Source of the DNA: a virus
Length of the DNA: 28,256 nucleotides
Direction: 5' to 3' (one strand)
Virus record (IMG/VR): IMGVR_UViG_3300037245_003526
Coordinates: 216,297 to 244,552 of that record
Below the pieces are notes generated by a model. That model was not told the DNA's origin. It saw only the letters and a program-made list of their open reading frames with translations, and ran no database searches. Both the position numbers and the translations under genes were made by a program. This document shows, piece after piece, positions 253 through 25,093 of this stretch. How positions within the stretch are numbered: position 1 is the first letter of the stretch; each line of letters begins with the position of its first letter.

Positions 253-543
253 ATGGCAGATTATAGATTTGAATCAGTGCAGTCAGATATAGACGAACTA
301 GAGGGAAAATATAGAGAAACTATTTCGTCATGGACTGGAGTAACTGATCCTACATACGGTGATTGTTATAGAGCTACTGTAGCACATTCTTTAGATCCAG
401 TTAATAGTGCCCATAACGTTACATTTTGGGATACAGGTACTAGCGAACAAATTATTCCATTAGCATGTAGAATTGTTGATGCTAGTTCATTTTATGTTTT
501 TATGCCAGTTAATACAGTAACAGTACAAGTTGTTGCCAATTAG
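253..543 (+). CDS. hypothetical protein (96 aa)
   Basis: AGGAGG sits 8 nt upstream of the ATG. It directly follows the fibre-like gene. A fibre chaperone is possible but unsupported. Confidence 0.6.
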   Translation: MADYRFESVQSDIDELEGKYRETISSWTGVTDPTYGDCYRATVAHSLDPVNSAHNVTFWDTGTSEQIIPLACRIVDASSFYVFMPVNTVTVQVVAN

Positions 544-569
544 TCGAAAACTTTGACGGAGACTCAAAT

Positions 570-869
570 ATGTTAAATCAATCTAGTAAACTAGTACAGT
601 CAATTTTGGAAGGAATAAATTCCGATTCTACAAAAGATACATTATCTATGTTGAGTAATCTTATTGAAGTTTTAGAAACGAAAGAAGATCCAGAATTAGA
701 AGAAGTTAAACTTGTAGAAGACGTTCATATCTTTATTGAAAAATTAAAACTTCTAGAAGCAAGACTTAGAAATTATATTAAGGAATCAAATAAAACCCTT
801 CCAGGAAATAAACTTGCCTCTCTCTATGAAAAACTTTCTTATAATAATGGTAGTATTTACCACGATTAA
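570..869 (+). CDS. hypothetical coiled-coil protein (99 aa)
   Basis: ORF with a weak GGAG RBS, same orientation as its neighbours. Confidence 0.5.
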   Translation: MLNQSSKLVQSILEGINSDSTKDTLSMLSNLIEVLETKEDPELEEVKLVEDVHIFIEKLKLLEARLRNYIKESNKTLPGNKLASLYEKLSYNNGSIYHD

Positions 870-901
870 TTAGACCTTTTTTTGATGTTAGAGGAGGAAC
901 T

Positions 902-1387
902 ATGTTACGATATATGAATAGATCTATTTTGAGCGCTCCAAATTTTAAGTATAGAGAATTTATAAAATCAGACACAGCAACAAGATATAATATTAAAAAT
1001 GAACCAACTGATGAGCAATGGCAAAATATAGAAATAGTAGCATCACAAATTATTCAACCAGTTCGAAATGAATTTGGTGGAATAAGAATTACATCAGGAT
1101 TTAGAAGTCCTGAACTTTGTGAAAAGATAGGAAGTTCTAAAAAATCCAATCACACAAAAGGGCAAGCAGTTGATTTTGAACCTATAGATAACGTTCCTAT
1201 GATTAAAATATTGGAGTGGATTTCAGAAAATTGTGAGTTTAGAGAACTTATAGCTGAATTTTTTCCAGACGGATGGATTCACGTAGCATATAGACTTGGT
1301 GGTAATATTGGGAAGATAAAACTAAAAGATCCAAACCATAATTATGAAGAAAAAAATATAGAATATATCCGTTCAATATACCAGTAG
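902..1387 (+). CDS. peptidase M15 family (L-alanyl-D-glutamate peptidase / VanY-like), probable endolysin
   Basis: Strong RBS GAGGAGG. Zn-ligand pattern SGFRSPE...SNHTKGQAVDFEP...GWIHVAY (H-x-x-G-x-A-x-D plus a distal His), as in T5-type endolysins of the M15 family. Confidence 0.7.
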   Translation: MLRYMNRSILSAPNFKYREFIKSDTATRYNIKNEPTDEQWQNIEIVASQIIQPVRNEFGGIRITSGFRSPELCEKIGSSKKSNHTKGQAVDFEPIDNVPMIKILEWISENCEFRELIAEFFPDGWIHVAYRLGGNIGKIKLKDPNHNYEEKNIEYIRSIYQ

Positions 1388-1403
1388 TTTACAGGAGATA
1401 CTA

Positions 1404-1859
1404 ATGGCAGATCAGAATCAGCAGGCTATGTCGAGGGATGATCTATTCCTATTAATGCAGAGTTATGAAAATACAGTTCAACTTAATACTACACTTCTAA
1501 ATCAACATCAAAAATTATTAGATGATAGTAAATCTCTTTTAGAAAAACATTCAGATATTATTATTAACCTAAATTCTTTAGCTGATAAACAACAAAAAAT
1601 TTCTGAAAAAAATACAACTATAATTAATAAAATAACAACACTTTCAGAACACCATGAGAGAAACATAGAAAATATTGACATAAAGATCGACGATCACAGA
1701 GTAGAAACCCTAAAGGATCATAATCAGCTCAAAACAAAAATTATAGTTATTGGTGCATTAATTGGTACTGTAGGAATTACACTATTAACTCTAATAGGCC
1801 AAATGTGGAGTAAGTATGAAATACTGGAGGCCATAGCAAAATCGTTAGGAGTTAACTAA
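1404..1859 (+). CDS. coiled-coil protein with one C-terminal transmembrane helix; possible holin/spanin-like lysis accessory
   Basis: AGGAGA RBS. The N-terminal ~110 aa are coiled-coil-like, followed by a hydrophobic stretch IIVIGALIGTVGITLLTLIGQMW. It sits directly after the endolysin. Functional call is inference. Confidence 0.55.
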   Translation: MADQNQQAMSRDDLFLLMQSYENTVQLNTTLLNQHQKLLDDSKSLLEKHSDIIINLNSLADKQQKISEKNTTIINKITTLSEHHERNIENIDIKIDDHRVETLKDHNQLKTKIIVIGALIGTVGITLLTLIGQMWSKYEILEAIAKSLGVN

Positions 1860-2701
1860 TGAATGATACTATATTTATTTTAGATGACGAAGACCAATTC
1901 TTAGAAATAATGAAATCATTTCTAATAGGAAGTGATATACCATGTAATGTTAGTACGTTTACAAAACCAGAAGACTTATTATCACAAACAAATATTAAAG
2001 ATGTAGATTTATTTATTATAGATATTAATCTAAAAACTGCACTTGATGGAAGAGAAGTATGTTCTGAAATACTGAAAATAAATAAGTATGCTGTATTTCT
2101 TTTTAACTCTGGTTACGATTATAATTATAATTCATTTATAAATCTTGATTGTACATTTGATTATATTCAAAAACCTGTTACTCACCCTATAATTATTAAT
2201 CGAACAAAAACTCTTCTTCATCTTTCTAAAGAACTTAAAAAAATAAATAAAACAAAAAAGAAAATTGAATTGAGTTTACGAGATATTTTTGACTATTCTG
2301 ATATCTATTTATTAGTTCTAAATTCAGAAATGGAAATACGATTATGTAGTTATAGATTATCAGTAGATTTAGGATTTGAATCTTCAGATGAAATTATAGG
2401 AAAAAATTGGACTAAATTTCTTCCTATTGAAATGGCTCCTCTAAAAGATCTTTTTAGTCCAGAAAGAAAAAAAATATTTAATGAATTTACTAATGATATA
2501 CAAACTAAAGATGGTAAAAGAATTCCTACTAAATGGTTTAATACAAGAATTAAAAATGGTGAAATGTGGACATTTAGTATTGGTATCCCATTAACAAAAG
2601 AAATAACTAAAGAAGATAGTATTGAAACAATGAGATCATATTGGGAAGATATTATAAAAAAAGATAGAACAACAATTAACGTCTTTAAAGACTTAATGTA
2701 A
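1859..2701 (+). CDS. CheY-like receiver domain fused to a PAS-like domain
   Basis: The ATG overlaps the upstream TAA. Receiver signature: acidic pocket ILDDED, phospho-acceptor DLFIIDINL..DGRE, S/T in FLFNSG, and conserved YIQKP (K-P). The C-terminal half has PAS-like DLGFESSDEIIGKNW...KDGKRIPTKWFNTRIKNGEMWTFSIG. Confidence 0.65.
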   Translation: MNDTIFILDDEDQFLEIMKSFLIGSDIPCNVSTFTKPEDLLSQTNIKDVDLFIIDINLKTALDGREVCSEILKINKYAVFLFNSGYDYNYNSFINLDCTFDYIQKPVTHPIIINRTKTLLHLSKELKKINKTKKKIELSLRDIFDYSDIYLLVLNSEMEIRLCSYRLSVDLGFESSDEIIGKNWTKFLPIEMAPLKDLFSPERKKIFNEFTNDIQTKDGKRIPTKWFNTRIKNGEMWTFSIGIPLTKEITKEDSIETMRSYWEDIIKKDRTTINVFKDLM

Positions 2702-2706
2702 TAGTA

Positions 2707-2747
2707 ATATGGATTATTTAGATTTAATTAAATGATCCATATTTTTT
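2707..2747 (+). terminator. rho-independent terminator hairpin
   Basis: ATATGGAT-(20 nt loop)-ATCCATAT followed by TTTTTT, 6 nt after the receiver-PAS stop. Confidence 0.5.
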
Positions 2748-2833
2748 CCGTCGAAAATAACCTCGTATTTACACCTTATATTTGGAACAAATAACCAATA
2801 GGATTTAATCAATAAAAGTGAAAAGGAGAATCT

Positions 2834-3709
2834 ATGAAACAAATCGAAGATGTGAAAATTTTAGTAGTTGGCGATATTATGTTAGATGAATATATAGTTG
2901 GAGATGTTAATAGAATTTCACCAGAAGCTCCAGTACCAATAGTTACTGTTAAAGATACATATTATAAACTAGGTGGTTGTGGAAACGTAATATCTAATCT
3001 TTCAAATATTGGAGCTAGAGTATCTTGTGTAACAGCAATAGGTCAAGATCAACCATCGAATATTATTCTGAAAGAACTTAGAAGTTTAAATGTTGATACA
3101 GAGTTTTTAATTTCTAGATCTGATATAACAACTACAATTAAAACAAGAATTATTTCTGATGAACGACAAATACAAATACTTCGATATGACACAGAGAATA
3201 TAAAAGATGTAGATACGTCTATTCTTGAATTAACTAATGGATATGATGTAATTGTAATTTCAGATTATGCTAAAGGTATGATAACAAAACCATTAATGGA
3301 TAAACTTAAAAGTTTTGGTAATAATATCATAGTTGATCCAAAACCAAAAAATTCACATTTATATAATGATATATTTTTAATGACTCCAAACCAAAAAGAA
3401 CATGATGAAATGATGAACGGTTATTTTCCAAGAGTTGAATATGTATTAAAAACTATGGGAAAAAATGGAATGGAGTTAATAGAGCAAAAACATGGAAGAC
3501 AAGGTGGAATTAAAATTAAATCAAAACCTGTCGATGTTTATAATGTAAGCGGAGCAGGTGATACAGTAGTAGCAATTATATCTCTTTGTTTAGCATTAGG
3601 TAACGACTTATATACCTCTGCTAAAATAGCAAATGAATGTGCCGGTTATGTAGTAACCCAAACAGGAACCTCAATGGTGCCAAGAGAATTTTTTAAGGAG
3701 CTATTATGA
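2834..3709 (+). CDS. D-glycero-beta-D-manno-heptose-7-phosphate kinase-like (HldE/RfaE domain I, pfkB/ribokinase fold)
   Basis: AAAGGAGA RBS. The N-terminus ILVVGDIMLDEYIVGDVNRISPEAPVPIVTV is nearly diagnostic for RfaE/HldE domain I. Also present: DYAKG, IVDPKPKN, and the C-terminal pfkB anion-hole motif NVSGAGDTVVAI...AGYVVTQTGT. At 291 aa it is kinase-only; there is no adenylyltransferase domain. Confidence 0.75.
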   Translation: MKQIEDVKILVVGDIMLDEYIVGDVNRISPEAPVPIVTVKDTYYKLGGCGNVISNLSNIGARVSCVTAIGQDQPSNIILKELRSLNVDTEFLISRSDITTTIKTRIISDERQIQILRYDTENIKDVDTSILELTNGYDVIVISDYAKGMITKPLMDKLKSFGNNIIVDPKPKNSHLYNDIFLMTPNQKEHDEMMNGYFPRVEYVLKTMGKNGMELIEQKHGRQGGIKIKSKPVDVYNVSGAGDTVVAIISLCLALGNDLYTSAKIANECAGYVVTQTGTSMVPREFFKELL

Positions 3710-4443
3710 AGAAAATTATATTAGTTTTATTTATATTATTAGTAAGTATATGCTCCTTAAGTTATGCAGATATTACTGTACAATGGGACGCAAATACAGA
3801 ACCTGACTTAGCAGGTTATAAAGTTTATTATGATGAAATATCACAGTGTCCAGATGGAGAAGATACATGTACAAATCCTAATTCATTATATACTGGTACT
3901 GGAGCAGTAGAGGGATCATCTCCTATTATAATAAATGAAACTCTATCAAATCCAGAATTTACTTTAACCGGACTTGATTCTTCAATAGATTGGTTTATAT
4001 CAGTTACAGCTTTTGATAATGAAACACCTGCTTTAGAAAGTGATCTTTCAAATCAGGTGGTAGCTTTAAAAGATATTATTACACCTCCTGATATTATTCT
4101 TGAAGAAACAACTTTGTTATGGGATGCTAATACAGAACCTGACTTAGCAGGTTATAAAGTTTATTATGATACAAATACAGGAACTCCATATAGTGGTACT
4201 GGAGCTATAGTATGGGGTGTACCAGCTGATTCTCCAATTATCATTCCATTAACTGCTCCTGGATTTGATCCTACTAATCCAGAGATTACACTAAAACTTG
4301 ATGGATGTATAACATGGTTTTTTGTAGTTACAGCTTATGACACTGAAAATCTTGAAAGTGATTATTCAAACGAAGTTTCAGATCCAGATGGTTGTCCACC
4401 TGAACCACCAACTGGAGTGATAGTAGTAATAACTCCAATATAG
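3706..4443 (+). CDS. secreted protein with two fibronectin-III-like repeats
   Basis: ATGA overlap with the upstream stop, and an AAGGAG RBS. N-terminal signal peptide MKKIILVLFILLVSICSLSYA. Two ~110-aa repeats share WDANTEPDLAGYKVYYD...SPIII...W..VTA.D.EN.ESD.SN.V. A 48-nt DNA tract is near-identical at 3787-3834 and 4123-4170. Confidence 0.65.
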   Translation: MKKIILVLFILLVSICSLSYADITVQWDANTEPDLAGYKVYYDEISQCPDGEDTCTNPNSLYTGTGAVEGSSPIIINETLSNPEFTLTGLDSSIDWFISVTAFDNETPALESDLSNQVVALKDIITPPDIILEETTLLWDANTEPDLAGYKVYYDTNTGTPYSGTGAIVWGVPADSPIIIPLTAPGFDPTNPEITLKLDGCITWFFVVTAYDTENLESDYSNEVSDPDGCPPEPPTGVIVVITPI

Positions 4444-4457
4444 TGAAAGGAAAAATA

Positions 4458-4988
4458 ATGAAACCAACGAATGAAATGAAAGAATATTTTGAACTAAGAA
4501 CCAACAGTCATATTAATATTGTGCAACTTAGTATGTTTTCTTTAATAAATAAAAAAGTTCATGAGAAGTATAATCTTAATAAAATTAATTTAATAAGTAG
4601 AGCTGATATACATGATAAATCCAAATTTGGTGATGTGGAATATACTCCATATGTTTGGTTAACAGAATTTTATCGAGCTAAAAATAATAACGAGCCTTTT
4701 AGTTATCCAGATGGAATGGAAGATTTAATATTTGATGCTTGGATACATCACTCTGAAACTAATCCTCATCATCCAGAATATTATCATAATTGTATTAGAA
4801 TGTCAGAAGAAGATATGGTTGAAATGGTTTGTGATTGGAATTCTATGTCACAGGAATATAATCAATCTCTTAAGAAATGGGTAGATGAAAATATTGATAG
4901 AAAATGGAAATTTAATAAAAAAAATAAAAAGTTTATTTATGAGATAGTAGAAATATTAGAACAAAAACTAAATACAGATATACTTTAA
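4458..4988 (+). CDS. possible HD-domain phosphohydrolase
   Basis: The ORF track starts at GTG 4443. An ATG at 4458 with an upstream AAAGGA fits better. His/Asp pattern: H(INIV)...RADIHDKSKFGD...DAWIHHSETNPHH...VCDWN. Weak motif-level call. Confidence 0.5.
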   Translation: MKPTNEMKEYFELRTNSHINIVQLSMFSLINKKVHEKYNLNKINLISRADIHDKSKFGDVEYTPYVWLTEFYRAKNNNEPFSYPDGMEDLIFDAWIHHSETNPHHPEYYHNCIRMSEEDMVEMVCDWNSMSQEYNQSLKKWVDENIDRKWKFNKKNKKFIYEIVEILEQKLNTDIL

Positions 4989-5001
4989 AAGAGGTAGCTA
5001 T

Positions 5002-5772
5002 ATGTTACAACTAGACACTAACAAAAAAAGAATACTTGAATATAAAATAGATATTCAAGGAATTGATTATAAAGAACTTGAAGGTGTTTTAAAATTTACA
5101 ATAGAAAATGTACATTATGGATTTCCATTAGAAATATTGTCTGATAATATTTTAGCAGAAGTACCTCCATTAGAAACAATTGTAAAGAATCTAAAAGATA
5201 AAGATATCATAAAATGTAAACTTGAAGTTTATGGAGAAGGTTTTTATTTGAATCCATGGTCAGGTGAATTTCAACTTGCAAAACCAGTTAAAGTAGAAGC
5301 TGCTCTTAAAGGTGAAGATGAAATTGAAGGTAAAGCTGTTACTGCTACATTAGTTGAAAAAACTAACAGACCTAAAGAAGATATAAAACCTGAAAATATT
5401 GACGAATCTGAAAAGAAGAAAGTTCTAACTAAATTATTCAAGAAAATAGAAGCAGCTCCTAAGAAAAAATTAATATCAGAGAAAGTACAATCAAAACTAA
5501 CAGAAATGAATAATCTTGTTGATATGTTTACAAGTTCATCTCTAAGAAATATAAAGAATATACCAAAACCAGTCAAACCTAAAAAAATTATGGTAGAAAA
5601 TGATCCATTGGCTCTAATGGCATCATTTGGAATGAAAAATAAAAATATTCAAGAAAGATTATTAGAATCTATTGGAGATAATGAACCAGATGAAGTTTGT
5701 AGACAACTTAGAAAAATGCTAGGAAATGAAAATCAAGATTCAATTTCATTATATTCTAAACTTCGAGGATAA
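5002..5772 (+). CDS. hypothetical Lys/Glu-rich protein (256 aa)
   Basis: AAGAGG RBS, long ORF, no recognisable motifs. Confidence 0.6.
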   Translation: MLQLDTNKKRILEYKIDIQGIDYKELEGVLKFTIENVHYGFPLEILSDNILAEVPPLETIVKNLKDKDIIKCKLEVYGEGFYLNPWSGEFQLAKPVKVEAALKGEDEIEGKAVTATLVEKTNRPKEDIKPENIDESEKKKVLTKLFKKIEAAPKKKLISEKVQSKLTEMNNLVDMFTSSSLRNIKNIPKPVKPKKIMVENDPLALMASFGMKNKNIQERLLESIGDNEPDEVCRQLRKMLGNENQDSISLYSKLRG

Positions 5773-5775
5773 CAA

Positions 5776-6123
5776 ATGATACTAGATTCATATTTACAAT
5801 ACATTCAAAAAGAAGAGACGTTGCAAGAATTTATAACAGTCCCTATGATTGCTATATTAGTAAAAGTCTATACCAGACATTTAAGTAAAGCTGCCAAGGC
5901 ATGTATCGGACATACAAGAGTCTCAAAAACAATATGTATATTAGAATATAGATTAAAAGCAGCACAAAACATTCAAACCGATTTAAAGAAAATTATTGGA
6001 AAATGTAGAAGTTCTAAAAATCCACAAAAATGTGTTTTAAAAGTTAATAATCGAATAAATTATTTTAAACGAAAAGAACAAAAAATAAGACAACAACTAT
6101 CAAAAGCATATCAGAAGGTTTAA
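5776..6123 (+). CDS. hypothetical basic protein, member of an 'SYL(D/Q)YIQ' N-terminal motif family
   Basis: GAGGA RBS. N-terminus MILDSYLQYIQKEE is shared with the ORFs at 6125 and 12685. Confidence 0.55.
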   Translation: MILDSYLQYIQKEETLQEFITVPMIAILVKVYTRHLSKAAKACIGHTRVSKTICILEYRLKAAQNIQTDLKKIIGKCRSSKNPQKCVLKVNNRINYFKRKEQKIRQQLSKAYQKV

Positions 6124-6124
6124 T

Positions 6125-6544
6125 ATGAATAAAATTACAGAATCCTATTTAGATTATATTCAGTCTGAAAAATATACAATCAAATCTGCTATAAAAGCTA
6201 CTGGAAAGTCTGTAGCCACTATGGCAAAAGGAACAAGTAAAGCTGCTTTAAGTGCAGTGACATTACCTTATAAAGTAGCTAAAGGTGTTGGTCGTGCCGC
6301 AGAAAAATCAGGTGAAATTTATTATAAAAGAGAAAAAAGAATAAGAGATAGAAAAATTGCAAAAAAAAGAAGAGCAGAAGCAAGAAAAAAGTTTGTAGGG
6401 AAGCTTAAATCAGCAAAAGCAAAAGTATCAAAACATGCACCAAAGGCAGTTGTCGCTGGTTTAGCAGGTATTGCAGCACATCAATTATATAAGAAATATA
6501 AACAATATAAAAAAGGTAAAGATAGCGAAAAAAATGAAGAATAA
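6125..6544 (+). CDS. basic Lys/Ala-rich protein (histone-H1-like tail), 'SYLDYIQ' family
   Basis: N-terminus ESYLDYIQSEKY, then a K/A/R-rich body (KRRAEARKKFVGKLKSAKAKVSKHAPKAVVAGLAG...). Confidence 0.6.
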   Translation: MNKITESYLDYIQSEKYTIKSAIKATGKSVATMAKGTSKAALSAVTLPYKVAKGVGRAAEKSGEIYYKREKRIRDRKIAKKRRAEARKKFVGKLKSAKAKVSKHAPKAVVAGLAGIAAHQLYKKYKQYKKGKDSEKNEE

Positions 6545-7112
6545 TATAATTAAAAATTATTTAAGTTTAATTCAAGAAGGTTACCTATTTTCGGATAAAA
6601 CAATAAGTATAGATCTTAATAAATTTGAAAGTGGAGAATCTAATACATTACTCGTAGTAGGTCTTATAGGTTCTGGTAAAACAACGTTAGGAAACTATCT
6701 CGCAAAAGAATATAAAGCACAATCCCTTCATACAGATAAATGTATTGCTTGGACTATAGCAGAACATCCTCCAAATAAAAAATTAATATCTGAATATTAT
6801 AAATGTATTCTAAAAATGATTAATTCTAATAAAAAAAGTGTTGTTGAAGGAACTGGTTTAATAGATCTAATGTTAGATAAAAAAGAATTGTTTGATTATC
6901 CAATGATTATAATTGGAAAGTCTGCCTTAGCAAGTTCAATTCAGTCAATGTTAAGAAATAGAAAAAATAAAGAAGAAAAGTTTTGGAGATTAATTTCCAT
7001 TCATACAAGATTGAATTTTAAAACTTTTTATAAAAAAATATTAGAAGTAAGAAAAGAAAGATTAAAAATACCTGGAGCAGTCATAGAAGAATATAAGGTA
7101 CCTAAATTATGA
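6534..7112 (+). CDS. P-loop nucleotide/polynucleotide kinase-like protein
   Basis: The track ORF starts at 6471 inside the previous gene. The ATG at 6534 overlaps the upstream stop by 11 nt and gives MKNNIIKNY... Walker A LLVVGLIGSGKTTLGNYLAKEY in a ~190-aa protein, consistent with a dNMP-kinase / PNK-kinase-like fold. Confidence 0.6.
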   Translation: MKNNIIKNYLSLIQEGYLFSDKTISIDLNKFESGESNTLLVVGLIGSGKTTLGNYLAKEYKAQSLHTDKCIAWTIAEHPPNKKLISEYYKCILKMINSNKKSVVEGTGLIDLMLDKKELFDYPMIIIGKSALASSIQSMLRNRKNKEEKFWRLISIHTRLNFKTFYKKILEVRKERLKIPGAVIEEYKVPKL

Positions 7113-7136
7113 ACTATCTAATGAACAGGAGAACTA

Positions 7137-7406
7137 ATGGCTAAACGCAAATCTTGTAAGCTTTGCACAGTTAAGAGAAAACAATGGGAAGAGGAAAACT
7201 TTTTTGGAGTTAATTGTAGGAAACATTTCGTACCTTTAATGGTAGTAAAAACACATAAGAAACGATTAAGTCCAGAGGAGAAAATTCAGGTTAAATTATT
7301 TATTGAAAAATATCATAATGGTATGTTTCCAGATAAATCGTTCAATGATTCAGAAGAACATTGGCACTTACATTTAACAAAAAAAGACAAGGGAATTAAA
7401 ATATAA
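7137..7406 (+). CDS. small Cys-containing basic protein (89 aa), possible zinc-binding
   Basis: CAGGAGA RBS. CKLCTVKRKQWEEENFFGVNCRKHF. Confidence 0.5.
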   Translation: MAKRKSCKLCTVKRKQWEEENFFGVNCRKHFVPLMVVKTHKKRLSPEEKIQVKLFIEKYHNGMFPDKSFNDSEEHWHLHLTKKDKGIKI

Positions 7407-7422
7407 TTCCCAAGCTTTTTTA
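7391..7422. terminator. bidirectional terminator hairpin
   Basis: GGGAATT-aaaatat-AATTCCC perfect 7-bp stem spanning the 7137..7406 stop, with an A-run upstream and a T-run downstream. It lies between convergent genes. Confidence 0.5.
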
Positions 7423-7425
7423 TTC

Positions 7426-7686
7426 TTACTCATATGATTCAGAACAAATACTACAATTCTTATCCAGGTCTAATTTAATTCCTCCGCAGCACATCCAAGA
7501 ATCTGGTTCATCTGGATTTTTATTATTAAGTCCTGTTAAGTCTATCTTTTTATGTCTCTTTATATAATCTAAAATAACATTTTCTATCTGTAGTGATTTT
7601 ATAATTGTACTAGATCTTATAGAATCTATTATTTCTCTACTCATTGTCATTGCATCTAATCTTGTAATCTCAGCTGTTATGGTCAT
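7426..7686 (-). CDS. hypothetical protein (86 aa)
   Basis: The track begins at TTG 7689. The ATG at 7686 has a strong RBS (AATGGAGGAtattgATG). Confidence 0.5.
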   Translation of the reverse strand: MTITAEITRLDAMTMSREIIDSIRSSTIIKSLQIENVILDYIKRHKKIDLTGLNNKNPDEPDSWMCCGGIKLDLDKNCSICSESYE

Positions 7687-7773
7687 CAATATCCTCCATT
7701 AAAAAAATTAATAAAATACTTTATCTATTTATTAATATATATACTTAAGAACATATATAAAAGGAGAATTATT

Positions 7774-7923
7774 ATGGATCTATATATAGAGCATATAAAG
7801 AATATTTTAAAAGAACCAAAAAAAATAAATCTATCAGAAGTAACCATCACTAATAAAGATTTATTTATAATAAATGAAATCGCTAGAAAAGATGAAAAAC
7901 TTTTTCAGATTGGAGATGAATAA
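7774..7923 (+). CDS. small ORF (49 aa) below the track size cut-off
   Basis: AAAAGGAGAattattATG at 7774. Translation MDLYIEHIKNILKEPKKINLSEVTITNKDLFIINEIARKDEKLFQIGDE*. Its TAA overlaps the ATG of the next gene (TAATG coupling). Confidence 0.4.
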   Translation: MDLYIEHIKNILKEPKKINLSEVTITNKDLFIINEIARKDEKLFQIGDE

Positions 7924-8348
7924 TGGATGATAATGACTATTTAAACCTATTAAAAGATCAACAAAAAAAAGACGATGAATCATTGGTTATGTTAAATGAA
8001 GAGAAACAAGATACCGAAACATTCGCTCCGTGGATAGGTGTTGATCTTGATGGAACATTAGCATATTATGAAAAAGGATATGCTCAGAAAAAAATGATTG
8101 GTGATCCAATTCCTGAAATGTTTGAAAGAGTAAAGAAGTGGATTGCTGATGGTAAAATAGTAAAAATATTTACTGCAAGAGTATACAAAAAAGAAGATGT
8201 TGGATTAATAAAAGATTGGTTGAAAAAAGTTGGTCTCCCTGATCTTGATGTAACCAATATTAAAGATCCTGGTATGTATGTCCTTTATGACGATAGAGCA
8301 GTTCAAGTACAACAAAATACCGGAAAGCTTCTAGGTAAACCTATTTAA
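7923..8348 (+). CDS. HAD-superfamily phosphatase (polynucleotide 3'-phosphatase / deoxyribonucleotidase-like)
   Basis: HAD motif I GVDLDGTLAY, motif II KIFTAR, and a motif IV-like LYDDRAVQV resembling the T4 Pnk phosphatase DDRTQVV. Confidence 0.6.
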   Translation: MDDNDYLNLLKDQQKKDDESLVMLNEEKQDTETFAPWIGVDLDGTLAYYEKGYAQKKMIGDPIPEMFERVKKWIADGKIVKIFTARVYKKEDVGLIKDWLKKVGLPDLDVTNIKDPGMYVLYDDRAVQVQQNTGKLLGKPI

Positions 8349-8353
8349 TTATG

Positions 8354-8380
8354 AGGTGGTAAAACTTCTACCACCTTTAT
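8354..8380. terminator. bidirectional terminator hairpin
   Basis: AGGTGGTA-aaacttc-TACCACCT perfect 8-bp stem followed by TTTAT, between convergent genes. Confidence 0.55.
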
Positions 8381-9307: not shown

Positions 9308-10246
9308 ATGGGATGTAAATGTTTAGAAAAAATACAATCATTATTTTCTGGTTGGAATCCATATCCATATGTACCTGGACAAGATGATAATATTATTCTT
9401 GACCCAATACCTGAACCTACTCCTGACCCAATACCTGAACCTATTATTGAACCTGTAAAGAAAGCAGTATTGGTTGGTATAAATATTTATCCAGCTCATA
9501 TGGATGCTAATTTAAGTGGATGTGTAAATGATGTTACGAATATGAGAAATTTATTGGTTTATACGTATGGATTTGATCCTGATAACATTAGAGTTCTAAA
9601 TGATGATCGTGCTACTAAAGCTAAAATTTTTGAAAGGTTAACATGGTTAATGAATTCTAATGAAGGTGATGAATTAGTATTTCATTATAGTGGTCATGGT
9701 AGTCAAGTAAGAGATAGAAATGGCGATGAACTAGATGATGGTTTAGATGAAATATTAATACCATACGACCATGATTGGGATGCTCCATTATTAGATGATC
9801 AAATAGCTGAAATATTTAAAACACAACCTGAAGGAACTAATCTCACAATGATTGCTGATTGCTGTCACAGTGGTTCTGTTTCTAGAGATATATCTAAAAA
9901 GAAGAAAAAAATTAGATTCCTTACACCACCATTTGATATCAGAAATAGAAGTCTTGATAAAGACTTATTATTAAGAAAAATTGGAGTTAAACCAAAAGGG
10001 ACTCAAAGACATATTCTTGCATCAGGTTGTAAAGATCATCAAACCTCAGCAGATGCATATATAGGATCAACATGGCAAGGTGCTTTTACATACGCTTTAA
10101 CTTCAGCTTTAAAAACAAATTCTAATCAATCTTGGACTTCAGCAATTGAAAAATTAAGTAGTATATTAGAAGTAAAAGGTTTTGATCAAACACCTCAACT
10201 AAGCGGAGATGATCAAAATAAATTAGTTTTTGGCGGAGCTGTTTAA
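9308..10246 (+). CDS. caspase-family (peptidase C14, metacaspase-like) protease
   Basis: AAAAGGAGG RBS. Catalytic dyad contexts FHYSGHGSQ (His) and IADCCHSGS (Cys, the D-x-C-H-S-G metacaspase signature). Typical fold start VLVGINIY and C-terminal QLSGDDQNKLVFGG. N-terminal MGCKC followed by a Pro-rich linker DPIPEPTPDPIPEPIIEP encoded by an 18-nt direct repeat. Confidence 0.8.
   Translation: MGCKCLEKIQSLFSGWNPYPYVPGQDDNIILDPIPEPTPDPIPEPIIEPVKKAVLVGINIYPAHMDANLSGCVNDVTNMRNLLVYTYGFDPDNIRVLNDDRATKAKIFERLTWLMNSNEGDELVFHYSGHGSQVRDRNGDELDDGLDEILIPYDHDWDAPLLDDQIAEIFKTQPEGTNLTMIADCCHSGSVSRDISKKKKKIRFLTPPFDIRNRSLDKDLLLRKIGVKPKGTQRHILASGCKDHQTSADAYIGSTWQGAFTYALTSALKTNSNQSWTSAIEKLSSILEVKGFDQTPQLSGDDQNKLVFGGAV
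9401..9442 (+). repeat. 18-nt direct repeat (x2) encoding a Pro-rich linker in the caspase gene
   Basis: gacccaatacctgaacct at 9401-9418 and 9425-9442 (DPIPEP x2). Confidence 0.7.
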
Positions 10247-13444: not shown

Positions 13445-14677
13445 ATGGGTAAAATTAAATATCCTGGTTTATGTGAGTTCGTTCAGGAAAAACTCAAACA
13501 GAAAAAAGATTCCACAGAGATATTTAATGAGGCATGTAGAACATTCAATTACAAAGATAGAATTAGTAGCTTCAGAAGATATGTAAATAATATAAAATAT
13601 AGACATAAAGATGATAGTCCAAATCAACCCTCAAATGATCAAACCATAAAAGAAAACTTACCAAAAGATGACGTATCAGAATTTCTTGATATTGTTTCGA
13701 AACAAAAAAATATAAGCATTATTGACATATGTAATGATCTTAATTGTTCACCACAAAGAATAGATAATTTAGTTTCCTATCATAGATCAAAAGGTTATGA
13801 TATCACCATTCATGAAGATATGGTTATGTTCTTTACAGACCTAGTATCATCAGTCGAACAAGTCCCTCAGATATCAGAAACCGAAATAACATTTGGTGTA
13901 GCATCCGACCTACACTTTGGATCCAAAGCAGCACAAATAACCGCTCTAAATGAGTTCTGTAATATATGTTCAAAAAGAGGAGTTAAACACATATTCAGTC
14001 CAGGTGATATTGTAGCAGGTTATAATGTATACCCTGGACAGCAATTCGATTTATATGCTTTATCAGCAGAAGAGCAAGAAGATTCAGTAATTAAAAATCT
14101 TCCAACCGGTGACTTTCAATGGTATATGTTAGGTGGTAATCATGATTATGCCTTTATTAAAAAGGGTGGTGGTCATAATCCTGTATTAGCAATAGCATCA
14201 AAAAGAGAAGATGTACATTATGTAGGTTTCGATGATGCTGATATACCTATACTTAATGGAGTAGAGCTTAAGCTGTGGCACCCTTCTGGAGGTGTGCCAT
14301 ATTCAGTATCTTATAGATTACAAAAAGGTGTAGAGCAAATATCATATAGCGAATTAAGAAGAATAATAAGCGGAGAAAAAATGGCACCAACAATTAGATT
14401 TGTACTGTCTGGTCATTTACATATTCAAGTACAAGCTATGATTGGATCAATATTCGGAATGCAATGTGGAGCATTTGAAGGTCAAACAAATTATCTAAAA
14501 CGTAAAGGTTTAGTACCTAATATTGGTGGATATATAGTTAATGCAGAATTAGGAAAAAATGGTCTTATTAAAAATTTCGATGCTAAATTTTATATGTTTG
14601 AAGATATAGAAGATGATTGGAGAAACTATAGTCATAGTATACCAAAACAAAAAATAGTTAAACCTATATTTGGATGA
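13445..14677 (+). CDS. calcineurin-like metallophosphoesterase with an N-terminal extension (410 aa)
   Basis: TGGAGG RBS. MPP motifs ASDLHFG (D-x-H), SPGDIVAG (GD), LGGNHDY (GNHD), LWHPSGG, and LSGHLHIQ (GH-x-H). Confidence 0.7.
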   Translation: MGKIKYPGLCEFVQEKLKQKKDSTEIFNEACRTFNYKDRISSFRRYVNNIKYRHKDDSPNQPSNDQTIKENLPKDDVSEFLDIVSKQKNISIIDICNDLNCSPQRIDNLVSYHRSKGYDITIHEDMVMFFTDLVSSVEQVPQISETEITFGVASDLHFGSKAAQITALNEFCNICSKRGVKHIFSPGDIVAGYNVYPGQQFDLYALSAEEQEDSVIKNLPTGDFQWYMLGGNHDYAFIKKGGGHNPVLAIASKREDVHYVGFDDADIPILNGVELKLWHPSGGVPYSVSYRLQKGVEQISYSELRRIISGEKMAPTIRFVLSGHLHIQVQAMIGSIFGMQCGAFEGQTNYLKRKGLVPNIGGYIVNAELGKNGLIKNFDAKFYMFEDIEDDWRNYSHSIPKQKIVKPIFG

Positions 14678-15441
14678 AAACTGAAAAATATTATATTTAT
14701 GCATATTTAGATCCAACAAAAAAAGGTAATTTTAAATATACGATTGAAGGAAAAATATTTATATTTGAATTTGAACCTTTTTATATTGGAAGAGGAACAA
14801 AAAATAGACTATTGGATCATTTAAAGTTACATCCTTTAGATAAAAATTATTTTAAAAAGAATAAAATTAAAAAAATAAAAAAATTAAATATAGAACCAAT
14901 AATAGTCAAGGTAAAGTTTTTACCTGATAAAATAAAAGCTAACTTATTAGAAAAAGAATTTATTAGTGTTATTGGTAGAAGAGATTTGAATCTAGGACCC
15001 TTAACAAATCTTACTGATGGGGGAGATGGAACTTATGGTTATAAACCTTCTGAAGAAGCAAAAAGAAACTGGAAAAAATCTATAAAAAAATTTTATGATG
15101 TAAAAGAAAATAGAGATAGAATGGGTTACTATAGTACAATTGAAGGAATGATTGAAAAATATGGAATAGTTGAGGGAGAAAAAAAGTATAAAGAAAGAAT
15201 AAGAAAGATGAAGAAGTCGATTAATAAAACATATAGTGATCCAAAAATAAGAAAAAAATGCTCAAATAAAGGTTCTAAAAATGGAATGTTTGGTATTACC
15301 CCACCTCATGCAAAAAAAGTTTTAGTTATGGAAGTTTTTTATAACTCCATTGCAGAAGCTTCTAAACATACTAAAGTTCCGTATACCACATTATCTCAAA
15401 GGTTAAATAGTAAAAATTTTTCAGAATATAAATATTTATAA
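14674..15441 (+). CDS. GIY-YIG homing endonuclease
   Basis: Overlaps the preceding stop (ATGA) and has a weak RBS, as is typical of free-standing HEGs. N-terminus YIYAYLDP...PFYIGRGTKNRLLDH carries GIY and YIG motifs with conserved R/H. The C-terminus has a NUMOD-like HTH (GMFG..PHAKKVL..EVFYNSIAEASKHTKVPYTTLSQRLNS). Confidence 0.8.
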   Translation: MKTEKYYIYAYLDPTKKGNFKYTIEGKIFIFEFEPFYIGRGTKNRLLDHLKLHPLDKNYFKKNKIKKIKKLNIEPIIVKVKFLPDKIKANLLEKEFISVIGRRDLNLGPLTNLTDGGDGTYGYKPSEEAKRNWKKSIKKFYDVKENRDRMGYYSTIEGMIEKYGIVEGEKKYKERIRKMKKSINKTYSDPKIRKKCSNKGSKNGMFGITPPHAKKVLVMEVFYNSIAEASKHTKVPYTTLSQRLNSKNFSEYKYL

Positions 15442-19459: not shown

Positions 19460-20128
19460 TCACCACCTATTCCCACCACCTTTTGCCTTTTTTAATTTAA
19501 CATCTTTAAAAAGTTTGTTATTCCCTTTAGTACAATAAAGGAAATGAAACACCGGGAAATCAACAGTATCTATCTTTTTATAGTAACCTTTTCTAATAAG
19601 AGTTCCTGCTGGACTTTTTTCATGATATTTAGCAACCAAACCTTTAATGGATGTCTTACGGAACCCATATTTTTCATATAAAAAGTCTGCAATATCATCC
19701 GTTGAAAAAACCTTATCTGCAAAGGGACCATTAATACATTTTATTATATGATCCATCGCACTTCCAATCCTTACAGTTCCAGGTTTTACACCTATCTTTC
19801 TGCTAACATAAATTACCGATCCGTTTCCCGTTACCCTTTCTAATTTTACTTTTTTAAAAAGATTGAAATTACCCTTGAGACAATAAAGATAATGAAAAGT
19901 TTTAATACCATTTTTTGCCTTCTTTTTCTTATAGAAAGCTTTCCGAAGTAAGATACCAGGATCGTCATTATATAACTTCGTGACTTCGCTCCTAATTGAA
20001 TCTTCAGCATAACCATATTTTTCGTATAAAAACATAGAAACATCTGCCGTCGAAAATACTTTTTTTGCAAATGGACCATTAACACATTTGATTATATGAT
20101 CCATTTGACTACCCTCTCTTATTTCCAT
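19460..20128 (-). CDS. protein made of two tandem ~105-aa homologous halves
   Basis: AAAGGAGatgaataATG. Half 1 MDHIIKCVNGPFAKKVFSTADVSMFLYEKYGY...FHYLYCLKGNFNLFKKVKL. Half 2 MDHIIKCINGPFADKVFSTDDIADFLYEKYGF...FHFLYCTKGNNKLFKDVKL. Confidence 0.6.
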   Translation of the reverse strand: MEIREGSQMDHIIKCVNGPFAKKVFSTADVSMFLYEKYGYAEDSIRSEVTKLYNDDPGILLRKAFYKKKKAKNGIKTFHYLYCLKGNFNLFKKVKLERVTGNGSVIYVSRKIGVKPGTVRIGSAMDHIIKCINGPFADKVFSTDDIADFLYEKYGFRKTSIKGLVAKYHEKSPAGTLIRKGYYKKIDTVDFPVFHFLYCTKGNNKLFKDVKLKKAKGGGNRW

Positions 20129-22484: not shown

Positions 22485-23123
22485 CTAATTTATTTTGCCT
22501 CTATCAGTTGGAATCTCAAGTTTGTTAAGCACATTGTCAAAATTTCCATGTACTGATGAACCACTCTCTAAAATTTCTCCTCTTTCCTTTTTACATTTTT
22601 CGCAGGGGCAACTTTTAGGTACTATATTCTTTAATAAATCTCCAACCATTTCTACAATTTTTGAATCTTCTATAGGTAGTGGAGGATTATCATCTATTAT
22701 TTTTTTAATAACTAAACGATTATCCTCATTCCAGGGAGATACATATTGTTCAAATGGAACATTGAATGCCCATTGTGTATCTTCTATATAGGTTTCCCCG
22801 CCCGGCGTAATGTCTTTCATACCAATCTTTATAGCATTCTTTCCATCCGATTCAGTGTATACCATAGCTAATGTATGTGTAGTTTCCGATATAAATAATA
22901 CCAAATCCGTTTTAACTTTGTAAGATATTATAGATACAAAATCACCTGCCTCTTTCCTCATAGCAGGATCATGGACTGGAAGAACGTTTACATCAACTTC
23001 CTCGTTTTCCATTTTTTTGACCAATATAAACAAAGAAGGTCTGTATTCCTTATTTATGTTATTAATAGCTTCACTAAAAATTTCATCAGCAATCTCCTTA
23101 AACTTCATTTTAAATTCTTCCAT
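22485..23123 (-). CDS. paralogue A of a duplicated 212-aa protein family with a C-terminal Cys cluster
   Basis: AGGGGAAttaaaATG. About 60% identical to 23468..24106. The C-terminal CPCEKCKKERGEILESGSSVHGNFDNVLNKLEIP is near-identical to its paralogue. Confidence 0.65.
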   Translation of the reverse strand: MEEFKMKFKEIADEIFSEAINNINKEYRPSLFILVKKMENEEVDVNVLPVHDPAMRKEAGDFVSIISYKVKTDLVLFISETTHTLAMVYTESDGKNAIKIGMKDITPGGETYIEDTQWAFNVPFEQYVSPWNEDNRLVIKKIIDDNPPLPIEDSKIVEMVGDLLKNIVPKSCPCEKCKKERGEILESGSSVHGNFDNVLNKLEIPTDRGKIN

Positions 23124-23467: not shown

Positions 23468-24106
23468 TTAATTTATTTTGTTTTTATCATTAGGAATCTC
23501 AAGTTTGTTAAGCACATTGTCAAAATTTCCATGTACTGATGCTCCACTTTCTAAAATTTCTCCTCTTTCCCTTCTACATTTTTCGCATTGACAATGGTTA
23601 GATGCTAAATTCTTTAATACATCTCCAACTATTTCCATAATTTCTGAATCTCCTATGGGATCTGGAGGAGGATTATCCTTTATCAACTGTTCGATAAATA
23701 AACGATTTTCCTCATTCCAGGGTGATACATATTGTTCAAATGGAGAATTGAATTCCCAGGTTGAATCTCCTACATATATTCCTTCTGGTTTATTGTATTT
23801 AGTACCAAACTTTAGAGCACTCTTTCCGTCCGATTCGGTGTACGACATATACAATGTATTTTCAGTTTCCCATATGAATAATATCAAATCCTTTTTATTT
23901 TTGTAAGATATTATAGATACAAAATTACCTGCCTCTTTTCTTTTAGCAGGATCATATACAGGAATAATGTCTACATCACTTTCCCCGTTTTTCAAATCTT
24001 TGACCAATATGAAAAGAGAAGGTCTTTCTTTCTCGTTTATATTATTACAAGCTTCACTAAAAATCTCATCAGCAATCTTAATAAACTTCATATCAAATTT
24101 TTCCAT
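23468..24106 (-). CDS. paralogue B of the duplicated 212-aa family
   Basis: GGGGGaaaaATG. C-terminal CQCEKCRRERGEILESGASVHGNFDNVLNKLEIP. Confidence 0.65.
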   Translation of the reverse strand: MEKFDMKFIKIADEIFSEACNNINEKERPSLFILVKDLKNGESDVDIIPVYDPAKRKEAGNFVSIISYKNKKDLILFIWETENTLYMSYTESDGKSALKFGTKYNKPEGIYVGDSTWEFNSPFEQYVSPWNEENRLFIEQLIKDNPPPDPIGDSEIMEIVGDVLKNLASNHCQCEKCRRERGEILESGASVHGNFDNVLNKLEIPNDKNKIN

Positions 24107-24256: not shown

Positions 24257-25093
24257 CTAAAATAATTCAGAATGGTTGTTAAAATATTGGGCAAATGCAT
24301 TATATCCGTTTTTATTTAACCATGTATTACTAGGAATTTTACCTCCGTTTTCCTTTATTAATTTCTCAGCAGTTTTTATATGATCTTTATGAGTTGCTCT
24401 CAATGAGACCTTTTTCAAATGACTAAATGATTCAGGATTTCTATACATACAACCGTAAAGATTACCATACCCGTTATTTTTCAACCATGTTGGATTAGGA
24501 ACTTTACCTCCGTTTTTCTTTGCTAATTTCTCAGCAGTTTTTACATAATCTTCCTTCTTTACAAAAGAATTATCTTGTTTTAAATGACTGAACACCTTAC
24601 GATGTTTCGTAAAATAACTGGAAAGAGGCATATACCCATTGTTTTCCAACCATGTAAAAGAGGGAACTTTACCTCCATTTTTCTTTGCTAATTTCTCAGC
24701 AGTTTTGATATGTTTTTCACGAGATATAAAAAAATTTTCTTGTTTTAAATTAGTGAATAACTCAGGGTGATTTATAAGATATTGAGCAAATGCACCATAT
24801 CCTTTTTTTATTAACCATGAATGACTAGGAATCTTATCATTATTATTTTTAGCTAATTTAGCAGCAGTTTCAATATGTACTTCAGAAGCTAGAACTAATT
24901 TTTCTTGCTCTAAATGATCAAATAATTCAGGAAGTCTCATAATACAACCTCCAAGAGCAATATAACCGTTTTCCGATAACCATTTAAAAGTGGGAATTTT
25001 ACCTCCATTTTCCTTTGCTAATTTCTCAGCAGTTTTCACATGATCTTCATTTATAATTCTTAAACTTCTAGAAAATATTTCCCTAAACTCTTT
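24257..25093 (-). repeat. five tandem ~165-nt coding repeats in the helicase 3' end
   Basis: Recurrent block (t)tacctccgtttt(c/t)ctttgctaatttctcagcagttt at about 24340, 24505, 24670, 24830 and 25000. Confidence 0.7.

Follow-up and report, generated by a model that had tools for sequence, protein, structure and literature searches.

Heptose nucleotides build the inner core of lipopolysaccharide (LPS), some capsules, and glycoproteins, and they also act as innate-immune agonists; LPS heptose is, in addition, a common phage receptor. Functional heptose biosynthetic enzymes have been described in viruses by Tang et al. (Science 2024), as relayed in a commentary (PMC11461863), according to which the phosphatase step was not found in viruses. 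Among the auxiliary genes recorded for pelagimyophages and cyanomyophages is rfaE (PMC7029224). A further sugar-activating route of phages, the uridine diphosphate (UDP)-arabinose pathway, comprises an isomerase, the kinase AfhE, the HAD phosphatase AfhF, and a nucleotidyltransferase, and arabinosylates 5-hydroxycytosine; AfhE is an APH/choline-kinase-like kinase domain fused to a MurU-like nucleotidyltransferase, and AfhF is the arabinose-1,5-bisphosphate phosphatase (PMC13326640). Here we analyze 28,256 nucleotides of the IMG/VR virus record IMGVR_UViG_3300037245_003526 (positions 216,297 to 244,552), a stretch referred to as the window. To judge from sequence comparison, the gene at 2834-3709 very likely encodes a standalone HldA-type heptose-7-phosphate kinase, the enzyme of the second step of activated-heptose synthesis. 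This kinase is a further member of a viral gene class already documented, and nothing in the window points to a new mechanism.

The kinase gene and its signature elements are the following:

2834..3709, plus strand: standalone kinase open reading frame (ORF) with an ATG start, 291 amino acids, closed by a stop codon
2823-2828, plus strand: Shine-Dalgarno sequence AAGGAG, 5 nt 5' of the kinase ATG, read directly from the sequence
2861..2938, plus strand: codons of residues 10-35, LVVGDIMLDEYIVGDVNRISPEAPVP, the RfaE-domain-I N-terminal signature with the substrate Asp residues and the lid
3389..3400, plus strand: codons of N186-Q-K-E189, the pfkB NxxE motif, which we take to bind Mg2+ and phosphate as is general in the pfkB family; N186 and E189 are invariant in the clade alignment A1 and in an alignment of 70 viral and cellular kinases
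3551..3565, plus strand: codons of G240-A-G-D243-T244, the anion hole of the pfkB fold, which includes the catalytic Asp and aligns with GAGDT of HldA; in these alignments A241 is conserved at 96% and the other four residues are invariant

An intergenic gap of 132 nt precedes the ATG, and a promoter scan, which returned fewer sites than in shuffled sequence, was uninformative. The gene is intact, since homologues of 290-305 amino acids, with identities of 93%, 84%, 83%, 74%, and ~50%, share its length. These same-length homologues, together with the downstream ORF that overlaps the kinase stop, rule out a truncated hldE pseudogene. The adenylyltransferase half, which an earlier note made from the DNA letters had reported as missing, is indeed absent: the ORF ends at residue 291 and the next one (3706..4443) is unrelated, so no adenylyltransferase is fused to the kinase. 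A search of all six frames of the window found no CTP_transf_like sequence at E ≤ 1e-3, the best candidate at E ≤ 10 being 10.5-bit noise. The lack of such a domain and the equal length of the homologues therefore place the enzyme with HldA rather than HldE.

The assignment to heptose-7-phosphate kinases is carried by profiles, by the best solved structure, and by motifs. The top NCBIfam model was TIGR02198 (rfaE_dom_I), with 252.6 bits, E 4.8e-75, and profile positions 3-307 of 315 covered, followed by the bifunctional HldE model NF008454 (201.7 bits), of which only positions 6-306 of 475 were matched. The ribokinase model TIGR02152 reached 61.9 bits (cut-off 299.65), and the other non-heptose pfkB models stayed at or below ~64 bits. 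Pfam PfkB matched residues 8-280 with 112.5 bits (E 3.3e-32), and E-values of this order rule out a chance match. Among solved structures, the best match, and the sole strong one, was Burkholderia cenocepacia HldA (4E84, E 1.2e-38), with ribokinase at E 1e-8. The earlier note had proposed this identity and suggested comparing the rfaE domain I profile with generic ribokinase and aligning the N-terminal substrate loop with HldE; the profiles separate as given above, the loop aligns with HldA and HldE, and both the best profile and the best structure are heptose kinases instead of ribokinase or adenosine kinase.

At the residue level, 78 positions, all motif residues among them, are identical among the window kinase, HldA, and Salmonella HldE in the 70-sequence alignment, where conservation of the key motif residues reaches 96% or more. 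The GDxMLDxY-type N-terminus and the GAGDT C-terminus lie at residues 10-35 and 240-244, as the earlier note had quoted them. The pfkB catalytic set is complete, with the GG dipeptide G47-G48, NxxE at 186-189, and GAGD with Asp243. All RfaE-domain-I-specific motifs are kept as well (GDxMLDxY...RISPEAPVP, TTxKxR, LRxD, SDYAKG, and DPK), corresponding to G13-D14, D18, Y20, R27-P35, T100/K103/R105, R117/D119, S143-D-Y-A-K-G148, and D168-P-K. HldA and HldE share residues G13, D14, D18, Y20, R27, S29, E31, P33, and P35 with the window kinase, and each of these is conserved at 99% or more among the 70 kinases. Substrate-contact residues were assigned from this conservation, not from the HldA crystal structure.

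As a whole, the best explanation of the locus, to which we give a probability of roughly 70%, is a standalone HldA-type, ATP-dependent kinase of the pfkB/ribokinase fold that would feed nucleoside diphosphate (NDP)-heptose synthesis for the heptosylation of a glycan. The use of the NDP-heptose pool for glycan heptosylation is suggested by relatives of the window kinase; candidate acceptors are the LPS core of the host, a capsule, and a glycoconjugate of either phage or host. The phosphatase step may be supplied by a HAD-type protein encoded at 7923-8348.

Support for this explanation comes from the neighborhoods of related viral kinases. ORFs were called in 92 loci and clustered, and hidden Markov models of partner families were run against six-frame translations, leaving 68 unique viral loci. 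Within 10 kb of the kinase, an HldC-type nucleotidyltransferase was found in 24 of the 68 (fused to the kinase in 9), a small WbuC-type cupin in 20, a NAD-dependent epimerase in 19, and a GmhA-type SIS isomerase in 5. Cupins are thus found beside the kinase more often than SIS-type GmhA; a possible role of the WbuC-type cupin in the viral pathway is that of isomerase or epimerase. Gene fusions were also observed: locus L037 (8274-9251) encodes a viral nucleotidyltransferase-GmhA fusion of 326 amino acids, and L073 (3463-4707) a kinase-nucleotidyltransferase fusion of 415 amino acids that fits one HENase architecture of Tang et al. In the cyanophage S-CAM1 (L012), the genes at 4725-5048 and 5008-5385, annotated as "phosphoheptose isomerase" and "cysteine dioxygenase", encode a 107-amino-acid HAD-like protein (DIDGT) and a WbuC-family cupin; at 107 amino acids, the former is too short to be a SIS-fold GmhA.

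The near clade, defined as loci whose kinase is at least 45% identical to that of the window, comprises 16 unique loci, three of which have a partner within 10 kb: L004, with an HldC-like gene 1 kb upstream; L013, with an HldC-like gene directly downstream; and L014, with a GmhA-like gene 6.4 kb away. The HldC-like proteins of L004 and L013 score 158 and 170 bits against rfaE_dom_II versus 47-50 bits against glycerol-3-phosphate cytidylyltransferase, and the SIS protein of L014 scores 170 and 154 bits against phosphoheptose isomerase/GmhA; by best model, all three are predicted to be heptose-specific. The most telling of these loci holds the following cluster:

9998-19962 of L013: kinase, HldC, methyltransferase, GT2, GT9 heptosyltransferase (PF01075, 36.6 bits), Dam methylase with an intein, PD-(D/E)XK nuclease, two GT1-like proteins, an unannotated 198-amino-acid ORF, methyltransferase, and sulfotransferase

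From its gene content, the L013 kinase would clearly serve a pathway of heptosylation and glycan tailoring that the phage itself encodes. Just upstream of this kinase is a gene for a LAGLIDADG endonuclease.

Several observations weigh against the proposed pathway. No partner of any kind lies within 10 kb of the kinase in 13 of the 16 near-clade loci. HldC, GmhA, cupin, and epimerase were absent, in six frames at E ≤ 10, from the 28.3-kb window, from the 3.2 kb upstream of it (L001), and from 29 kb of L003/L254, and no recognizable glycosyltransferase was found among window ORFs of at least 200 amino acids. Extending the L003 contig by 8 kb likewise revealed no partner gene. With HldC, GmhA, epimerase, and glycosyltransferase unseen in ~31 kb of this phage, the isomerase, nucleotidyltransferase, and transferase steps would have to be encoded elsewhere in its genome of roughly 170 kb or supplied by the host. 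Such genes can be dispersed: in L029, whose contig spans 269 kb, ~60 kb separate the kinase from a GmhA-like gene. The TIGR02198 score of 252.6 bits is also below the NCBI equivalog cut-off of 345. Salmonella HldE scores 427 bits against the same model, and the viral kinases adjacent or fused to rfaE_dom_II score 239-268 bits (L013, 238.7; L004, 255.1; the kinase half of the L073 fusion, 268.3); the shortfall is thus read as typical viral divergence with no sign of another function, at a score that does not establish equivalog status. Finally, the link between the HAD-type protein and the kinase is weak, with Foldseek E-values of 0.004-0.5 and family members near the kinase in ~4 of 68 lineages.

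The protein proposed for the phosphatase step is encoded as follows:

7923..8348, plus strand: small capless HAD-type phosphatase with a DLDGT nucleophile motif (phrog_1238, E 6e-11)

A terminator-like hairpin at 8353-8377 follows this gene. The family consists of ~105-140-amino-acid proteins, ~2,000 homologues of which were detected, and the window member has no NCBIfam or Pfam match. phrog_1238 carries the label "phosphoheptose isomerase", which probably stems from the cyanophage annotation of the short HAD-like gene beside the kinase. The AlphaFold2 (AF2) model, with a predicted local distance difference test score (pLDDT) of 83.8, has a predicted HAD core and resembles BT_0820, the phosphatase domain of T4 Pnkp, and phage AfhF (9IQW; Foldseek probability 0.97, E 0.024); GmhB ranked below these three, with E 0.2-0.5. 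A family member lies directly upstream of the kinase-nucleotidyltransferase gene in L092. The protein is a reasonable, if weak, candidate for the heptose-1,7-bisphosphate 7-phosphatase (GmhB) step.

Relatives of the window kinase are widespread in viruses. A two-pattern scan located them on at least 234 IMG/VR viral contigs, and HldC-like and GmhA-like genes occur on at least 591 and on 393 contigs, respectively. GenBank phage matches comprised 34 viral records and one Salmonella contig, all below 35% identity; the viral records were mostly cyanomyoviruses, and two of them represent a 735-kb metagenomic phage. The statement of the earlier note that such an enzyme is rare in phages does not hold in view of these contigs, of the cyanomyovirus records, and of published accounts (PMC7029224; PMC11461863). 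The closest relatives (~50% identity) are ~300-amino-acid single-domain kinases on phage-like contigs of 80-330 kb, and this large-phage clade is without a described member. All the long contigs inspected (168-256 kb) were phage-like, several of them are in IMG/VR, and their hallmarks include a baseplate hub, PAAR, Amidase_2, large RNA-polymerase subunits, T4 gp13, Gp53-like proteins, NAD ligase, family-B polymerase, and homing endonucleases. Searches with the kinase, the helicase, and the metallophosphoesterase of the window returned no close cultured relative of the phage. Three related proteins, P0054, P0076, and P0111 (the latter two from L005 and L007/L008), carry source names of Thermoplasmata, Pacearchaeota, or another "Candidatus" metagenome-assembled genome (MAG).

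In neighbor-joining trees, the window kinase and that of L003 group with 100% bootstrap support and are joined by the HldC-bearing L004 at 77%. A separate sub-clade (93%), outside of which the window kinase falls, contains only orphans with no partner within 10 kb; deeper nodes are unresolved.

Genes in the surroundings of the kinase gene are these:

902-1387, upstream of the kinase: M15 endolysin (PHROG endolysin, 1.9e-31)
1859-2701, plus strand: receiver and PAS protein with no recognizable output domain, between the lysis genes and the kinase
3706..4443, plus strand: signal-peptide protein with two FN3-like repeats, its start overlapping the kinase stop by 4 nt
4443..4988, plus strand: DUF5662 protein (PF18907, 106 bits), at most 14 nt after the FN3-like gene
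9308-10246, plus strand: caspase-like protease (Peptidase_C14, 113 bits) with an N-terminal PIPEP-rich repeat

A 151-amino-acid protein with a C-terminal hydrophobic segment is also encoded upstream of the kinase. The kinase and the FN3-like gene are probably co-transcribed; the latter contains internal direct repeats D1/D2 with 336/324-nt spacing, and its L003 orthologue matches Pfam fn3 with 28.3 bits. For the DUF5662 gene, ATG 4458 is the more likely start over GTG 4443, because database homologues begin at the Met encoded there. This protein has two close homologues only and no sequence match in the PDB, and its AF2 model failed (pLDDT 39.7). The L003 contig also encodes a receiver-only protein (L254, 17146-17508). 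In L031 and L043, a homologue of the caspase-like gene follows the kinase at a distance of 290 nt; in L003 and L034, one is located within 10 kb of it.

The lysis, receiver-PAS, and secreted FN3-repeat genes that the earlier note had pointed out are present, and so is the gene that it had called an HD-like hydrolase, here a DUF5662 protein. Its use of their arrangement as a functional argument, on the other hand, is weak. The kinase-FN3-DUF5662 order is kept in L003, whose kinase is 74% identical, and only there; collinearity in that locus extends to a 256-amino-acid protein, three small ORFs, the HAD-type protein, and the caspase-like protein. Over the 68 viral loci, DUF5662 occurs near the kinase in 4, an FN3 protein in 6, and a caspase-like protein in 3, a recurrence at about chance level for windows of ±10 kb in genomes of ~200 kb. 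The gene arrangement was given no functional weight because co-location is about what chance would produce. The broader proposal of the earlier note, a phage-driven heptosylation of a surface polymer, finds indirect support in the HldC, GT9, glycosyltransferase, methyltransferase, and sulfotransferase genes of L013, although no such genes are visible in the window. The consumption of sugar-phosphate pools and the signalling role that it also raised are speculative.

Further features of the window are listed below:

7391-7411: bidirectional terminator-like hairpin GGGAATTA...TAATTCCC, which closes the tightly packed plus-strand block 253-7406 and faces the convergent gene 7426-7689 on the minus strand
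13445-14677, plus strand: calcineurin-like metallophosphoesterase, whose best NCBIfam models are those of the archaeal DNA polymerase II (PolD) small subunit
14674-15441, plus strand: GIY-YIG homing endonuclease with an I-TevI-type DNA-binding domain, directly after the metallophosphoesterase gene
22485-23123 and 23468-24106, minus strand: tandem paralogous 212-amino-acid genes with C-terminal CxC...CxxC and no Pfam or PHROG match
24257-26800, minus strand: superfamily 2 (SF2) helicase of 847 amino acids, the C-terminal third consisting of five tandem repeats, each with a "KTAEKLAKKNGGKVPS..WL..NGY"-type motif

The sole GenBank virus match of the metallophosphoesterase is in Halorubrum tailed virus BLv36 (28.6% identity), and the helicase is distantly similar to that of the 309-kb Tunturiibacter phage Tunturi_5. 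The ORF at 19460-20128 is an internal duplication of a ~110-amino-acid unit.

The alternative that survives best, though unlikely, is that the gene is an orphan which has kept the HldA fold and taken on a diverged role, with heptose 1,7-bisphosphate as an end product, as a drain on sedoheptulose/heptose-phosphate pools, or with a related sugar (mannose or another sugar phosphate) as substrate, perhaps together with the FN3-like and DUF5662 proteins. This would fit the lack of partners in ~31 kb of the phage and in 29 kb of its closest relative, the prevalence of orphans in the near clade, which include the well-supported all-orphan sub-clade, and the gene order conserved with L003 at 74% kinase identity. 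The HldE kinase domain is moreover reported to accept mannose (PMC10948575, citing Morrison and Tanner 2007). However, the residues shared by HldA and HldE are kept at 96% or more in orphans and non-orphans alike, which argues for one substrate; partners can be distant, as in L029; the window lineage groups with the HldC-bearing L004; and the co-location of DUF5662 and FN3 proteins across lineages is at chance level. A more specific and rather doubtful version would have the kinase work without phage HldC or GmhA in a three-gene module with the secreted FN3-repeat and DUF5662 proteins, the GmhB step being filled by a small phosphatase (the product of 7923-8348 or the DUF5662 protein) or heptose 1,7-bisphosphate being itself the product. 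If this were true, the orphan kinases of large phages would represent an undescribed way to hijack host heptose flux.

A role in the hypermodification of phage DNA, in which the kinase would provide an NDP-sugar by analogy with the UDP-arabinose pathway acting on 5-hydroxycytosine, is improbable. The two pathways share a parallel logic and the HAD-type protein resembles AfhF (9IQW), yet the AfhE kinase is APH/choline-kinase-like and not pfkB (PMC13326640). L004 does carry genes for a thymidylate-synthase homologue, a radical-SAM protein, and an HD protein no more than 10 kb from its kinase, whereas neither a thymidylate-synthase homologue nor a glycosyltransferase was recognized in the window, and the GT9 heptosyltransferase, sulfotransferase, and methyltransferases of L013, the one relative with transferases next to the kinase, are typical of glycan, not DNA, modification. 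To our knowledge, heptosylated DNA bases have not been described. An AfhE-type arabinose-5-phosphate kinase was itself considered and ruled out by the pfkB fold of the window protein, which differs from that of AfhE.

A cellular, archaeal or bacterial, rather than viral gene is very improbable. The Thermoplasmata and Pacearchaeota source names of P0054, P0076, and P0111 would favor it, as would the Halorubrum virus match of the DP1-like metallophosphoesterase. Against it stand the phage hallmark genes on every long contig examined, several of which are IMG/VR contigs, and the content of the window itself, with its PHROG endolysin (1.9e-31), a GIY-YIG/I-TevI-type endonuclease, mostly ORFans, and no tRNA or rRNA. 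An archaeal origin derived from the MAG names was rejected once the contigs had been inspected: P0076 and P0111 sit on contigs of 223-256 kb that also encode a baseplate hub, PAAR, Amidase_2, and subunits of RNA polymerase, so phage sequence was probably assigned to archaeal MAGs in these cases. The remaining candidate, a generic ribokinase, adenosine kinase, or other pfkB sugar kinase, for which the Pfam match to the broad PfkB family alone would speak, is effectively refuted by the profile ranking (rfaE_dom_I far above ribokinase) and by the RfaE-specific N-terminal and internal motifs.

As a kinase feeding NDP-heptose for glycan heptosylation, the enzyme would give a phage control of the committed kinase step, by which it could remodel the cell surface, for example excluding other phages or masking a receptor, or glycosylate its own components. 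The gene strengthens the case that genes of the heptose pathway are widespread among uncultured large phages, and L013 stands out as a phage-borne cluster of kinase, HldC, and GT9 heptosyltransferase. The value of the locus lies mainly in cataloguing, along with a candidate for the viral phosphatase-step enzyme.

Set beside the described systems, the window kinase shares its architecture with Burkholderia HldA: both are single-domain proteins, alignable over residues 3-283 (E 1.2e-38), with an identical RISPEAPVP lid and identical TTIK.R, LR.D, SDYAKG, DPK, TPN..E, and GAGDT motifs. They differ in that overall identity is ~30%, the window kinase is ~20 residues shorter through trimmed loops, and its gene is phage-borne and has no hldC, gmhA, or gmhB close by. 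Domain I of enterobacterial HldE (RfaE) belongs to the same kinase family, with 32.5% identity between the window protein, 97% of which is aligned, and Salmonella HldE; HldE, however, is bifunctional, with a C-terminal rfaE_dom_II adenylyltransferase, whereas the window protein ends after the kinase domain. The phage UDP-arabinose pathway of HY126, RB69, and DLP3 follows the same scheme, in which a sugar phosphate is converted to a sugar 1,x-bisphosphate, a small HAD phosphatase yields the sugar 1-phosphate, and this becomes the NDP-sugar, but the AfhE kinase fold is unrelated, the sugar is arabinose, and the acceptor is DNA. The rfaE-like "carbohydrate kinases" of cyanomyoviruses and pelagimyophages (S-CAM1, P-SSM2, and S-SM2) belong to the same family, are phage-encoded, and are often standalone; their identity to the window kinase is only 25-31%, and their operon holds a nucleotidyltransferase, a WbuC-type cupin, a small HAD protein, and an epimerase, none of which lies beside the window kinase. 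With the uncultured large-phage clade of ~300-amino-acid kinases (e.g., L003-L025), the window kinase shares 49-74% identity, equal length, and identical motifs; the genomic context differs within this clade, one sub-clade having the kinase beside genes for RNA polymerase and the baseplate, and L013 having it beside HldC and GT9.

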